Shown here: piece after piece, positions 23,983 through 29,900 of the stretch | Numbering within the stretch: the stretch's first letter is position 1 | Layout: each line of letters opens with the position of its first letter | Assembly: GCF_030013595.1 (NCBI RefSeq) | Contig: NZ_CP122769.1 | Length of the DNA: 64,000 nt | Direction: 5' to 3' (one strand) | Source of the DNA: Escherichia coli | GTDB taxonomy: Bacteria; Pseudomonadota; Gammaproteobacteria; Enterobacterales; Enterobacteriaceae | Program-made: the position numbers

Positions 23983-26900
23983 TAACTGTCAGACCAAGTT
24001 TACTCATATATACTTTAGATTGATTTAAAACTTCATTTTTACAAATTATAAATACTCTCAAGTGTATATTCAGTATGGGATTGCGCAATGATTGCCTAAT
24101 AAAATTTCTGAAATATTTCTGTATCGCATAATTTTTTATATCAGATAAATTGTACTGGATTTCTTAAAAAATTGCAGTATAATTGCCGCAATTATCCCAC
24201 CGTTTATTTTTTGAGTAGTTTCTCATGATGCAGCATACTTCTGTGTGGTACCGACGCTCGGTCAGTCCGTTTGTTCTTGTGGCGAGTGTTGCCGTTTTCT
24301 TGACCGCGACCGCCAATCTTACCTTTTTTGATAAAATCAGCCAAACCTATCCCATCGCGGACAATCTCGGCTTTGTGCTGACGATCGCTGTCGTGCTCTT
24401 TGGCGCGATGCTACTGATCACCACGCTGTTATCATCGTATCGCTATGTGCTAAAGCCTGTGTTGATTTTGCTATTAATCATGGGCGCGGTGACCAGTTAT
24501 TTTACTGACACTTATGGCACGGTCTATGATACGACCATGCTCCAAAATGCCCTACAGACCGACCAAGCCGAGACCAAGGATCTATTAAACGCAGCGTTTA
24601 TCATGCGTATCATTGGTTTGGGTGTGCTACCAAGTTTGCTTGTGGCTTTTGTTAAGGTGGATTATCCGACTTGGGGCAAGGGTTTGATGCGCCGATTGGG
24701 CTTGATCGTGGCAAGTCTTGCGCTGATTTTACTGCCTGTGGTGGCGTTCAGCAGTCATTATGCCAGTTTCTTTCGCGTGCATAAGCCGCTGCGTAGCTAT
24801 GTCAATCCGATCATGCCAATCTACTCGGTGGGTAAGCTTGCCAGTATTGAGTATAAAAAAGCCAGTGCGCCAAAAGATACCATTTATCACGCCAAAGACG
24901 CGGTACAAGCAACCAAGCCTGATATGCGTAAGCCACGCCTAGTGGTGTTCGTCGTCGGTGAGACGGCACGCGCCGATCATGTCAGCTTCAATGGCTATGA
25001 GCGCGATACTTTCCCACAGCTTGCCAAGATCGATGGCGTGACCAATTTTAGCAATGTCACATCGTGCGGCACATCGACGGCGTATTCTGTGCCGTGTATG
25101 TTCAGCTATCTGGGCGCGGATGAGTATGATGTCGATACCGCCAAATACCAAGAAAATGTGCTGGATACGCTGGATCGCTTGGGCGTAAGTATCTTGTGGC
25201 GTGATAATAATTCGGACTCAAAAGGCGTGATGGATAAGCTGCCAAAAGCGCAATTTGCCGATTATAAATCCGCGACCAACAACGCCATCTGCAACACCAA
25301 TCCTTATAACGAATGCCGCGATGTCGGTATGCTCGTTGGCTTAGATGACTTTGTCGCTGCCAATAACGGCAAAGATATGCTGATCATGCTGCACCAAATG
25401 GGCAATCACGGGCCTGCGTATTTTAAGCGATATGATGAAAAGTTTGCCAAATTCACGCCAGTGTGTGAAGGTAATGAGCTTGCCAAGTGCGAACATCAGT
25501 CCTTGATCAATGCTTATGACAATGCCTTGCTTGCCACCGATGATTTCATCGCTCAAAGTATCCAGTGGCTGCAGACGCACAGCAATGCCTATGATGTCTC
25601 AATGCTGTATGTCAGCGATCATGGCGAAAGTCTGGGTGAGAACGGTGTCTATCTACATGGTATGCCAAATGCCTTTGCACCAAAAGAACAGCGCAGTGTG
25701 CCTGCATTTTTCTGGACGGATAAGCAAACTGGCATCACGCCAATGGCAACCGATACCGTCCTGACCCATGACGCGATCACGCCGACATTATTAAAGCTGT
25801 TTGATGTCACCGCGGACAAAGTCAAAGACCGCACCGCATTCATCCGCTGATTTCTCCCTGTATTTTTTCCAAACCCACCGCACACTCCATTCGTATTATG
25901 GGCGGTGGGGTGGGGTTTGTTATGCCGTATTTATCAAATAAACGCCTACTTGCTGAGATGAGTATCGCTCTTGTCATGGCGATCGTTGCCACGCTGACCC
26001 TTGAGCACAGTCAGATTGATCTGATGGTCGCTGATTGGTTTTATCTGGGTATGGGGCATTGGATGGTTGCCAAGCAAGCTTTTTTGCCAGATTTGCTACT
26101 GTATTCTGGACTAAAAAAGCTGCTGATGGCGATGCTGATCTACTTGCTGGTTGCGACCATTTGCCGTGCTTATCATGAGAAAAAGGGCAATGCTATCACT
26201 GCCAAGTGGCTTGTCCCAGTGACAAAATTTCGCGTGCGTGAGCTTGCGTATCTGGTGCTGACTTTGATCCTAGTGCCGACAGTTGTCGCGTCATTGAAGG
26301 CATATACTCATGTGGTCTGCCCTGTGCATTTGACGATTTTTGATGGTACGCTGCCGTATTTGCCGATGCTTGATAGTATGCGTAACACCATTCCTGATAA
26401 GTGCTTTCCTGCGGCGCATGCCAGTAGCGGATTTGCGCTGTTTGCCTTTGCGTTTGCGCCAAGTTTGCGCCGCCGTCGTGGTGCGATCATCATCGTGGTG
26501 ATGGCATTGGGCTGGGCGATGGGCTGCTATAAGATGATTATTGGCGATCATTTTTTGAGCCATACGGTGGTGTCGATGATGCTTGCGTGGGCGATGTCGG
26601 CAGGGCTTGCGTGGGTGTTTTTTAAGAAGGGTGAACAAGTTTAATCGGCTGAATTTACAATCCAAGTGCAACAAAAAAAGAAGTACTCATCAACTAGAAT
26701 ATAATTTTGTTTCCACACAAAAACCACTTCCAAATGATGAGTACTTCCTACCGACATCTTACAATAAACGAGCGAGAAAAGATAATGATTTTACTCGCAC
26801 AGGGCAAAAAACAAGCAGAAATTGCCAAAGCACTGGGACGTAGCTCCAGCACCATTTCTCGCGAGCTGAAACGACACGCTCTAGAAAGCTACAGTGCAAC

Positions 26901-29900
26901 GAACGCACAAAACAGCTATTTGAAGCATCGTCAAAATAGCAAAGCACAGCGCAAATTAGAGCAGCCTGAATATTTCAATTTGGTGCAAGAAAAGTTTCTG
27001 ACAGAAAACTGGTCGCCCGAACAAATCAGCGCACGATTAAAATTGGAAAAATCTGAATTATCCATTAGTTATTCAACCATTTATCAATTGAGAAGCGGGA
27101 AGGCCGCGAGGCCGAAATTGGCTGCTAGCTTTTCCGTGAAAATACTCTTGCTCATATGGGGTAGTATTATATCAAGCGCAATGGCTGCCGGCATGCTTAC
27201 TGATACATCAATAAGCAGCTTATTGTTAGCCACTTTAATGTCAGGAAGCTTAAGCTCTGTTAGTGTTTTGGCTATTCTCTCTCCTCTTGGAAGACTGGTT
27301 GAAAGAGCCAGGAATATTTCCAATAACCCATTAAGTCAATCCCTCTACACTGGGCGCACCGATGAGTTTGGCCAAATAGAGTTTGCTTTACGAATGATGC
27401 AAGCTGAAACAGGCGCCATAGTAGGTCGCATAGGTGATGCATCAAATCGGCTTAGCGAACACACCCGAGGCCTACTAAAGGATATTGAGTCAAGCAATGT
27501 ACTTACAGTTGAGCAGCAGGCAGAGACAGATCAAATAGCAACGGCAGTAAACCAAATGGTGGCAAGCATTCAAGAGGTTGCGAGCAATGCACAGCATGCT
27601 GCAGATGCGGCCGGAAGAGCAGACACTGAGACGGCATCTGGCCAGCGTCTGGTAGCCCACACAAGCCAGTCAATCACTGCCCTTGAAGGTGAAATTAGGC
27701 AAGCCACTCAGGTTATTCATGAGCTTGAAGGTCAAAGTAACGAGATATCAAAAGTTCTTGACGTTATACGAGGGATCGCCGAGCAAACGAATTTGTTGGC
27801 ACTCAACGCAGCAATTGAGGCCGCGCGTGCTGGTGAGCAGGGGCGTGGTTTTGCTGTTGTCGCCGATGAGGTTCGCAGTCTTGCTGCTCGCACACAGCAA
27901 TCGACAACGGATATTCAAAGCATGATCAGCGCTCTACAAGAGCGAGCGCAATCCGCTGTTACAGTCATGGAGCAAAGTAGTCGGCAAGCGCACACGAGTG
28001 TAGCTCACGCAGAGGAAGCAGCTACAGCTCTTGATGGAATTGGCCAACGCGTTAACGAAATTACCGACATGAACGCGCAAATAGCGACTGCGGTCGAGCA
28101 GCAGGGAGCAGTAAGTGAAGACATAAACCGCAGTATTATCAATATACGCGATGCTGCTGATACCAATGTACAGACCGGGCAGAATAATTTGCAAAGTGCG
28201 AAATCTGTCGCTCAGTTAACTAGCGCTCTGAGCGAACTGGCAAAACAGTTTTGGGAAAAACGAGGATAACGCTTTTCAGTATCTCGACAGGGATAACTTA
28301 CTTTACCATCGGTTATCCCTTTTAGCCGCACAAATTTTAGCCATGGCTTTTCAGGAAGTCAGGGCTATCAGAATGGCCTTAGAAAGCCTAGTCAAAGAGC
28401 TGTCACGAGAACACCGTTAGCTTAGCGTACGATTTTTTCCGAATTCTGCGGTTCCCCCTTAAATACCTTCCGATGGACTTAAACCTTGCCGCTGCAACTT
28501 CCTCGAAATAGGGCAGCATTCTTTTGCTGGCATTAGCGATTGCCTGCGTTCGTTGTGTGATGATTTTGCTGATGGCTGTGCTGATCTGCCCTTCTTTTAA
28601 GGCCGCTTCTCTGATTTGTTCAATGCGGGTATCTGAAATACCAGAGGACAGAGCATTCTGAACTGATCCAATTGCCAAGGAAGTGACCGCCTGCTGCTCT
28701 TGAGAGGGCACTAACGCAACGCTAATGCCCGTCACAGGGTTTTCACGGTCATCTGTACCTAATTGCTCAATCGCGAGGTCACGGAGCCCCTGAGCATCAC
28801 TCACGAGGGCTGTAAGCGATGCCTGTAGGCTATTCACTTCTTCCTGAGCTTGTCTGAGTTCAGCATCCCGGATTACCTTATGGTCGGGTTCAAATACAAA
28901 ACTGGACAGAAAATCCTTAACCAGGAAGCGATGCTCTCGCATTTCTTTGCCACGTTCCCTACGGTAGCCACTGCTGTCTTCAGTGACAATAGCAACAGTC
29001 TGACCGTAAACGCGGGGATGGGCGCGTAGAATTACTGTATGCAGCTTATCTTCAACGTAACGCAAAGACGTAATGAGCAGTGTATCCCCTGCCACAATAC
29101 CCTCTTCAGGGATGCTGTCAGTGGACGTCCAGTACTGACCCGCCAGCAAAGAATGAAATCGCTCTAAACGGTCAATGCTATTTTTGCTGACCAGGTCACC
29201 CATATACTTTTCCTTCCAGATTCGTGTGTTAGGTGAATCATACCAGATTGCCCTTGCCGTCTAATAACGCAGAAAACTGTGAATCCAAAATTCCTTAAAT
29301 TCAAACCTGTCCAATATAAAAGATGGCTCTTTTTCTTATCCAGTGTTAAGCGATAATGCTCAATTTTATTTCATTATTGTCAGAATCAAAATAATCTGAA
29401 AATAAAAAAGGCTTCAGAATTGAAGCCTCTATATTATACAACGTGAATGTATTTTATTTATCTTTCACCGGGTTCATTTCCCAGTATCTTTCACGTACGT
29501 TTTCTTGGCAATGGTCCGCTCGCTCCGGCGTGTCCCTTTTACGAGTAGCAAATGCTTCAATTACGGCATTCAAGTCTTTTTCTTTGATTTTAGATCCAAC
29601 AGGCAAGTTTTCTTCAAACTCAGTCCTTACCAGTTCTTTCGTTTTTTTATAATCGGTTTCACTTTGGATTTCAGGTTTTAAACAAATATCGGCAACCATC
29701 ACATCTGATTTGCCCGGGATCGGTTTTTTCCCGTTTTCAGATGCAAGGACCGCAGAGGAGGTAAAGGCGACAGACAGAGTTGCACATAACAGAAGGTATT
29801 TTAATTTCATGACTCACTCCATGATTATCAATGATGGTTGCTCAGACACATCATTTATACCATGCCTGTCACCGAATACGAGATCCCCATATTTTGGCTT

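Follow-up and report, generated by a model that had tools for sequence, protein, structure and literature searches.

The window that we analysed (the whole stretch of 64,000 nucleotides) is part of an IncHI2 plasmid and carries, in order, IS1, blaTEM-1, mcr-1, pap2, nt 1-438 of ISApl1, nt 393-1578 of the Tn1721 mcp gene, the Tn1721 end repeat and the plasmid backbone. Its resistance region is collapsed and decaying. The left edge is an IS1 of the IS1B type (22209..22977, minus strand), a 100% match to other IS1 copies of the reference plasmid and annotated as an IS1B transposase in NZ_CP117034.1. It is followed by a Tn2-type fragment with blaTEM-1 (22978..24041, plus strand; CDS 23125-23985), delimited by annotation, sequence and a BLAST boundary at 24042, which stops 55-56 bp past the blaTEM-1 stop codon, where the mcr-1 cassette starts. 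This cassette (24042..26647, plus strand; mcr-1 at 24225-25850 and pap2 at 25922-26644 by annotation) is 100% identical to the interior of the Tn6330 of locus L003. The composite structure of Tn6330, in which two directly oriented, intact ISApl1 copies flank the cassette, is not preserved, as the upstream ISApl1 is absent (the Tn2-type fragment abuts the cassette at 24041/24042) and the downstream copy ends at nt 438. On the far side lies an IncHI2 backbone ORF (28403..29203, minus strand), the 3' end of which runs into the Tn1721 end repeat and marks the original Tn1721 insertion site; a hypothetical protein, WP_223230068.1, occupies this position in all four of the annotated loci inspected.

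Between cassette and backbone, two damaged mobile elements have been joined. By BLAST, two stretches are 100% identical to parental sequence: positions 24042-27085 correspond to the mcr-1 cassette followed by nt 1-438 of ISApl1, and positions 27084-28458 to nt 393-1578 of Tn1721 mcp together with the 38-bp end repeat (9001-10375 of locus L002). The ISApl1 remnant (26648..27085, plus strand; nt 1-438 of 1,070) comprises the left end repeat (core from 26650), the 86-bp leader and, from an intact ATG, the first 117 transposase codons. Of what makes a functional ISApl1, a member of the IS30 family, the helix-turn-helix (HTH) region is present, and the DDE core and the second (right) terminal inverted repeat are missing. 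The catalytic residues of the transposase are D163, D217 and E251 (PMC10916398), all past the break and hence missing from the chimera; likewise the Pfam rve domain, found at 174-261 in the intact transposase, has no match in the chimera. The Tn1721 remnant (27084..28458, plus strand) consists of mcp (orfI), which runs to 28269, and the 38-bp inverted repeat read from the sequence at 28421-28458, so that one end repeat and 1,186 nt of mcp are left of the transposon. The initial annotation had transposase similarity lost near 27085, which proves exact: alignment to full-length ISApl1 puts the break at 27084/27085. The two parental matches overlap there by 2 bp, the dinucleotide TC, common to ISApl1 (nt 437-438) and mcp (nt 393-394), as seen in a three-way alignment, in the BLAST ends and in the parental contexts of locus L010.

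An ORF crosses this joint, as the initial annotation had claimed, with the transposase HTH region in frame with the chemoreceptor (MCP) core. It lies on the plus strand at 26707-28269, measures 520 aa from the first possible TTG and is interrupted by neither stop codon nor frameshift. The annotated start of the ISApl1 transposase, the ATG at 26734, is in frame and gives a product of 511 aa (26734..28269, stop included), made of ISApl1 transposase residues 1-117 followed by Tn1721 MCP residues 132-525. A second ATG, at 26737, was chosen by the NCBI entries for the same protein, and the resulting 510-aa form is on record with the exact sequence (HAB1536237.1, HAB1537004.1, HAE2237482.1). Pipelines disagree on the locus, some calling this 510-aa 'helix-turn-helix domain-containing protein', and PGAP, in NZ_CP117034.1, calling a 343-aa 'HAMP domain-containing MCP' that starts at an in-frame ATG inside the ORF (27238..28269, plus strand), a product whose exact sequence occurs on 987 contigs.

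Residues 1-117 of the chimera are identical to the intact transposase, and Pfam finds the N-terminal DNA-binding HTH region in them (HTH_38 at 5-48, E 5e-16), together with a weak HTH_32 match at 64-119 (E 1e-3). The chemoreceptor part contains HAMP at 180-225 (E 4e-7) and MCPsignal at 310-472 (E 9e-44), as had been proposed; the single transmembrane helix of that proposal has to be replaced by two hydrophobic segments (about 129-151 and 160-182) that form a hairpin, followed by the HAMP linker, in the native MCP topology. The parent Tn1721 MCP also carries a PAS sensor (residues 24-114; Pfam PAS_3 at 31-114), which falls within the deleted residues 1-131 and is lost whole, the chimera having no PAS match. 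The matches include an aerotaxis receptor from the PDB (31cj), and the closest signalling domain is that of the Pseudomonas receptor PcaY (6s18). The signalling tip motif is highly conserved and aligns to both E. coli Tsr and PcaY; the domain as a whole has two symmetric 14-residue insertions relative to Tsr, and aligns to PcaY without gaps. These indels suggest a signalling domain of the 40H class, which exceeds the aligned part of Tsr by four heptads.

The ISApl1-mcp junction is restricted to one plasmid lineage. It was found in 2 of 72,556 plasmid records, both from Salmonella, and in three Salmonella draft assemblies, where the ORF lies inside contigs of 35-46 kb; a search of 5,426 complete E. 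coli genomes turned up no copy. The plasmid of the window is a sister of the two complete records, from which it differs by an IS10 insertion, and has the identical junction. The left junction, blaTEM-1|mcr-1, occurs among the 72,556 plasmids and the E. coli genomes only in the same two records, and the junction of the Tn1721 end with the backbone is common to 51. Across its full 232 kb, the reference plasmid has one fragment each of ISApl1 and Tn1721, and neither an intact ISApl1 nor an ISApl1 right end. The initial annotation had suggested looking elsewhere on the replicon for the missing 5' half of the chemoreceptor gene; it is absent from the reference plasmid and from the window, as are Tn1721 tnpR, tnpA and res and any other ISApl1. 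Searches of the literature turned up no account of this particular fusion or of its plasmid lineage.

Sister IncHI2 plasmids, in which mcp sits at the same backbone site and in the same orientation, show how the fusion may have arisen. Their layouts are ISApl1(1-951)-IS1-mcp(71 onward) in locus L010, ISApl1-catA1'-IS1-mcp(71 onward) in L012 and IS1-mcp(71 onward) in L009. As mcp is already cut at nt 71 in these plasmids, where it has an IS1-derived start codon, its own promoter and start were gone before the fusion. Removal of about 1.6 kb (~1,604 bp) from the L010 layout yields the junction of the window exactly. Resistance regions of IncHI2 ST4 plasmids lie at one site, with Tn1721 sequence (PMC7843963), and IR(Tn1721)-delta-mcp remnants of varying length are known to bound resistance regions (PMC7319535, PMC4899885). 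For Tn6330, decay proceeds through deletions that have joints of 1-4 bp and leave mcr-1 fixed, large or complex deletions being rarer (PMC5821093). We are therefore confident that the ORF arose by chance, as an in-frame scar that a small deletion left while the mobile elements decayed. The initial annotation had kept a chance in-frame truncation as its fallback, and this is backed by the joint with its 2-bp microhomology, the confinement to one lineage, the mcp previously 5'-truncated and promoterless, and the many other hybrid or truncated N-termini of Tn1721 mcp, which are common.

The order of events that we infer would be the following. An IncHI2 lineage had a Tn1721 end, made up of the end repeat and mcp, as the right border of its resistance region; the mcp promoter and first 70 nt would have been lost to IS1, with an ISApl1 copy just upstream in the same orientation. 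An mcr-1-pap2-ISApl1 unit would then have landed behind blaTEM-1 and become continuous with the ISApl1-IS1-mcp arrangement, either by recombination between ISApl1 copies or through one larger deletion. Finally, a recombinase-independent deletion of about 1.6 kb at the TC microhomology would have taken out the rest of ISApl1 (from nt 439), the IS1 and nt 71-392 of mcp, leaving the transposase in frame with mcp by coincidence. Such a coincidence has a 1-in-3 prior chance, and the frame match itself thus carries no statistical weight. The lone SNP in the retained ISApl1 piece (C at nt 80) is that of the downstream copy of Tn6330, not of the copies located at catA1; the two-step route therefore needs a crossover between nt 80 and nt 438, or else the junction is that of a different, larger deletion. 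Of two potential intermediates, catA1-ISApl1(1-438)|mcp and a full Tn6330 behind blaTEM-1, the plasmid collection contained neither. An origin mediated by a transposase acting on ISApl1, IS1 or Tn1721 ends was considered and rejected, as neither breakpoint is an element end and no IS is left at the joint.

The fusion may be expressed: the start signals of the transposase are intact, which makes this plausible, and read-through from mcr-1 and pap2 is a second possible route. If translated from the ATG at 26734, the predicted product, of 511 aa, would sit in the inner membrane with its two termini on the cytoplasmic side; in it, an HTH head able to bind ISApl1 ends takes the place of the PAS domain and precedes HAMP and the signalling domain. 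It would have neither catalytic activity nor a sensor and would, we assume, most likely be neutral; nothing points to a selected function. One might speculate instead that an active chimera, tethered to the membrane, binds the ISApl1 end repeats, including the left one just upstream of its own start, inhibiting ISApl1 in a dominant-negative way or acting as its autorepressor. The intact left end, leader and ATG, the complete HTH_38 and the nearly complete second HTH-like region would all permit this, and a consensus scan gave no convincing terminator between pap2 and the ORF. Furthermore, EMSA with the ISApl1 HTH domain in purified form shows binding to both end repeats, and the left repeat is part of the promoter (PMC10916398); the boundaries of that construct are not stated, however, and residues 1-117 may or may not suffice for binding. 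Membrane tethering would also restrict access to DNA, the reference plasmid offers no intact ISApl1 to regulate, the fusion is limited to one lineage, and the promoter and terminator counts of the consensus scan are not above chance (5 promoter-like sites versus 4.1 expected from shuffled sequence). We thus consider such an activity very unlikely. That the chimera, made from the ISApl1 start signals, travels with mcr-1 as an accidental 'anti-transposition' factor damping ISApl1 in recipient cells, or else as a sensor-less signalling domain perturbing the host chemoreceptor arrays, seems quite unlikely.

A second alternative is that the chimera, or the 343-aa product of the internal ATG, is a chemoreceptor-like signalling protein feeding the Salmonella chemotaxis pathway. 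The HAMP domain and the signalling tip are intact, the transmembrane hairpin has its native topology and PGAP does annotate the fragment as an MCP; but the PAS sensor is wholly deleted, mcp was promoterless and 5'-truncated already in the sister plasmids, and the parent gene is often broken by rearrangement. The receptors of E. coli and Salmonella have 36 heptads, and an equal length class is needed for mixed arrays. The longer class of the chimera makes its integration into host arrays doubtful, on established knowledge of receptor classes. Even the intact Tn1721 MCP has, to our knowledge, no demonstrated function, and we regard this alternative as very improbable. Finally, ISApl1 and Tn1721 mcp are both multi-copy repeats in Enterobacterales, of the sort on which assemblers tend to err, but an assembly or sequencing artefact joining them is next to impossible and was ruled out by the agreement of independent assemblies (the same junction in two complete plasmids, the window and three independent drafts), with one copy per fragment, and hence nothing to collapse, in the reference plasmid.

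The important consequence of the scar of mobile-element decay that we favour concerns mcr-1. Since the DDE core and the right end of ISApl1 are gone and the plasmid carries no further copy of the element, mcr-1 is immobilised: ISApl1 can no longer move it, and it stays fixed in a conjugative IncHI2 plasmid. The junctions 24041/24042 and 27084/27085, both unique, are precise markers by which this lineage of Salmonella plasmids can be followed, and the locus would be better labelled as a remnant or a pseudogene fusion. It is best explained as an ordinary rearrangement scar, not as a new kind of gene; its value lies mainly in annotation and epidemiology, and a new biological question would arise only if the product were active.

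The parent Tn1721 MCP has the architecture of Aer-type receptors (cytoplasmic PAS, transmembrane hairpin, HAMP and MCP signalling domain), of which the chimera keeps the last three; it differs in having a DNA-binding HTH region where those receptors have the PAS sensor. N-terminal transposase fragments that inhibit transposition are known, such as IS1 InsA, IS911 OrfA and Tn5 Inh, and the chimera resembles them in pairing a DNA-binding transposase N-terminus with no catalytic core. Those inhibitors, however, are encoded and regulated by their elements, whereas in the chimera the truncation, and with it the fusion to a membrane protein, is accidental, and its plasmid has no intact ISApl1.

A further likeness is to the decay products of Tn6330 (Snesrud et al. 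2018, PMC5821093), in which the upstream ISApl1 is lost, the downstream copy damaged, the joint is of 1-4 bp and mcr-1 is fixed. Typically about 1,070 bp, the whole IS, is removed, and rare partial forms keep the last 42 or 90 bp with the right end repeat (PMC5821093). Here, in contrast, the first 438 bp, with the left end, were kept, and the deletion leaves the IS for the neighbouring element, creating a hybrid ORF. The other half of the locus has its counterpart in the IR(Tn1721)-delta-mcp or delta-orfI remnants (PMC7319535, PMC4899885, PMC7843963), in which a resistance region is likewise bordered by the 38-bp end repeat and a 3' part of mcp, at a site common across a lineage. Their usual truncating partner is IS26 or IS1, whereas here it is an internal point of ISApl1, and the matching frames have left a long ORF.

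The ORF at 26707-28269 (+ strand) reported in the initial annotation is present and uninterrupted, and encodes 520 aa if counted from the first possible TTG. ATG 26734, the counterpart of the transposase start in an annotated full ISApl1 (position 8095 of L003, a Tn6330 locus), is in frame and gives 511 aa, while NCBI entries of the identical protein start at the adjacent ATG 26737 (510 aa). The PGAP annotation of the related plasmid NZ_CP117034.1 does not call the chimera, and has instead a 343-aa 'HAMP domain-containing MCP' starting at an internal in-frame ATG, 27238. The ORF coordinates given earlier, and the estimate that transposase similarity is lost near 27085, proved exact. 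In local BLAST, 24042-27085 matches the inside of Tn6330, the ISApl1-mcr-1-pap2-ISApl1 composite transposon, at 100% identity (the mcr-1 and pap2 cassette, then nt 1-438 of the downstream ISApl1, which begins at 26648), and 27084-28458 matches Tn1721 at 100% identity (nt 393-1578 of its chemoreceptor gene, mcp/orfI, and the 38-bp inverted repeat of its terminus, 28421-28458). The breakpoint alignment that had been proposed thus ends the ISApl1 part at nt 438 and begins the mcp part at nt 393, the two matches sharing two bases at the joint. There, the ISApl1 parent reads ...CCATTTATC before the break and GTGG after it, the mcp parent ...TATGCTC and then AATTGAG, and the window ...CCATTTATCAATTGAG.

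In the resulting protein, transposase residues 1-117 are joined to residues 132-525 of the MCP. Pfam identifies HTH_38 at residues 5-48 (E 5e-16), a weak HTH_32 at 64-119, HAMP at 180-225 and MCPsignal at 310-472 (E 9e-44). The PAS domain of the intact parent MCP (24-114) is entirely replaced and the integrase-type catalytic core of the intact transposase (174-261) entirely lost; the experimentally defined ISApl1 catalytic residues D163, D217 and E251 (PMC10916398) are all past the break, and the chimera cannot catalyse transposition. In the hydropathy profile, two neighbouring segments, at approximately residues 129-151 and 160-182, are the only ones of the chimera to stand out as hydrophobic. 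The pair is a membrane hairpin that keeps the N-terminal head, like the signalling domain, on the cytoplasmic side, a topology shared with Aer-type receptors. An alignment of the signalling half with the Pseudomonas receptor PcaY (PDB 6s18, E 4e-47) is gap-free; against E. coli Tsr, two symmetric gaps of 14 residues have to be opened in Tsr, one on each side of the hairpin tip. In the established heptad classification, the receptors of E. coli and Salmonella are of the 36-heptad class. The two gaps indicate that the signalling domain of the Tn1721 MCP is four heptads longer, a class assignment deduced from the alignment, and the insertions relative to Tsr, taken with the gap-free PcaY alignment (protein of 27238-28266), suggest that the gene came from a bacterium with 40-heptad receptors and not from an enterobacterium.

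The window belongs to an IncHI2 plasmid and is nearly identical to NZ_CP117034.1 (IncHI2, Salmonella enterica, pig faeces, Poland), from which an IS10-type element inserted in pcoD and one small indel set it apart. As the IS10-type element, which interrupts this copper-resistance gene at 11676-12992 (402-aa IS4-family transposase ORF, 11782-12990), is missing from the otherwise near-identical reference, the window represents a sister plasmid; near ~47283 it is without ~87 bp of NZ_CP117034.1 (record 158009-158095). The local order is IS1 (22209-22977) at the left edge, a piece of Tn2 containing blaTEM-1 (to 24041), the mcr-1 cassette (from 24042), ISApl1 nt 1-438 (from 26648), mcp nt 393-1578 together with the end repeat of Tn1721 (to 28458), and then IncHI2 backbone. 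The cassette start at 24042 directly abuts Tn2 sequence, 55-56 bp past the stop codon of blaTEM-1; nothing of the upstream ISApl1 remains at 24041/24042, and the preceding two bases are TA, versus the ancestral AT. The whole 232-kb reference plasmid holds a single ISApl1 fragment (438 nt) and a single Tn1721 fragment (1,375 nt); a search across it for the 5' half of mcp, which the initial annotation had proposed looking for elsewhere on the replicon, found nothing, and neither tnpA, tnpR or res of Tn1721 nor the ISApl1 right end was found there.

Among 72,556 plasmid records, two contain the ISApl1/mcp junction, both of them Salmonella plasmids of ~232 kb; none of the complete E. coli genomes, 5,426 in all, contains it. 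Within the plasmid collection, the blaTEM-1/mcr-1 junction is confined to this same pair of records. Three Salmonella draft contigs (35-46 kb) also encode the exact chimeric protein, under the annotation 'helix-turn-helix domain-containing protein'. The Tn1721-end/backbone junction is far from private, being common to 51 plasmid records (215-291 kb) among the matches listed, and all four inspected are IncHI2, in accord with the published observation that IncHI2 ST4 plasmids carry resistance regions, Tn1721 sequence included, at one site (PMC7843963). The backbone ORF at 28403-29203 (- strand; hypothetical protein WP_223230068.1) crosses the 38-nt Tn1721 end repeat and stops 18 nt beyond, inside Tn1721, and its C-terminus was therefore made by the Tn1721 insertion; this hybrid gene call recurs in the four annotated loci inspected (NZ_CP117034.1, L001; an E. 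coli O157 plasmid, L009; pMCR1-43934, L010; pMCR_915_E1, L012).

At the same backbone site and in the orientation seen in the window, pMCR1-43934 carries ISApl1 nt 1-951, IS1, mcp from nt 71 and the Tn1721 end repeat. In pMCR_915_E1 a full ISApl1 in catA1, split by IS5, is followed by IS1 and mcp from nt 71, and the O157 plasmid, which lacks ISApl1 there, has IS1 followed by mcp from nt 71. Such layouts are the likely precursor of the window junction, and the promoter and first 70 nt of mcp would therefore have been lost to IS1 before the fusion. The annotated 506-aa 'PAS domain-containing MCP' of these sister plasmids starts at a TTG within the IS1 end repeat (L010 18450-18463; L012 12450-12463) and is another hybrid ORF. 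In L012, the segments of the catA1 ISApl1 copy (9197-11331) split by the IS5-family element overlap by 14 nt (nt 201-214), longer than expected of a typical IS5 target duplication.

A modelled deletion of ~1,604 bp, spanning ISApl1 nt 439-951, the 768-bp IS1 and mcp nt 71-392, converts the pMCR1-43934 arrangement into the window junction base for base. TC is present once at each parental endpoint, and since both endpoints are away from mobile-element ends, the event is best read as an illegitimate, microhomology-assisted deletion and not as transposase action. We infer that Tn6330 inserted 55 bp behind blaTEM-1, and that its downstream ISApl1 then recombined with the ISApl1 near mcp, linking mcr-1-pap2 to it; between directly oriented copies this would also remove the intervening resistance region, which would explain the small resistance region here. 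The microhomology deletion through TC would then have fused ISApl1 to mcp. The sole SNP in the retained ISApl1 piece, nt 80, is C as in a Tn6330 downstream copy, and T in the catA1-located copies. This allele fits a crossover beyond nt 80 and, equally well, a single larger deletion that would have made the junction in place of recombination and a small deletion. No intermediate was present among the 72,556 plasmid records.

The chimera retains an intact ISApl1 left end, 86-nt leader and start codon, and no convincing terminator lies between mcr-1/pap2 and the ORF, so that some transcription and translation is plausible; consensus scans for promoters and terminators gave counts no better than chance. 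A promoter-like match at 26632-26661 (TGAACA, 18-nt spacer, TACAAT) takes its -35 from the 3' end of pap2 and its -10 from the ISApl1 left end repeat; such matches are no commoner in the region than in shuffled sequence. The initial interpretation is partly supported: of the readings it offered, a chance in-frame truncation is the better one. The chimera is very probably a neutral by-product, given its lack of catalysis, its missing sensor domain, its host-foreign length class, its restriction to one lineage and a prior chance of in-frame fusion of 1/3. Purified ISApl1 HTH domain (construct boundaries not stated) binds the end repeats of both sides, and the left repeat forms part of the promoter (PMC10916398), so the chimera head might bind DNA close to where its own ORF starts. 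A dominant-negative or autoregulatory effect on ISApl1 is improbable. A chemotaxis-related role is less probable still, as the sensor domain is gone and the signalling domain belongs to a length class other than that of the host's receptors. That the fusion is an artefact is scarcely credible.

In practice, mcr-1 is immobilised here, and the lineage-specific junction pair is useful for tracking. Tn6330 is known to decay when deletions with 1-4 bp joints remove its ISApl1 copies, fixing mcr-1, and rarer large or complex deletions also occur, for which the IS30 experiments of Szabo et al. are cited (Snesrud et al., PMC5821093). Only derivatives retaining the right-end repeat might still move (Snesrud et al., PMC5821093), whereas the structure here keeps only a left-end ISApl1 fragment. 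Tn1721 has the order IR-mcp-res-tnpR-tnpA-IR-tetR-tetA-pecM-delta-tnpA-IR, and the edges of resistance regions routinely carry 'IR-delta-mcp' remnants that vary in length (PMC7319535, PMC4899885). Hybrid ORFs at mcp are commonplace, since several inspected members of the MCP protein cluster (2,579 members at 90% identity) bear different short foreign leaders (P0006, P0008, P0011, P0012 and P0014) or a foreign C-terminus (P0009); the chimera differs only by its long, recognisable foreign part. It is a new instance of a well-known kind of event, the decay of Tn6330, here with a Tn1721 remnant bounding the resistance region.
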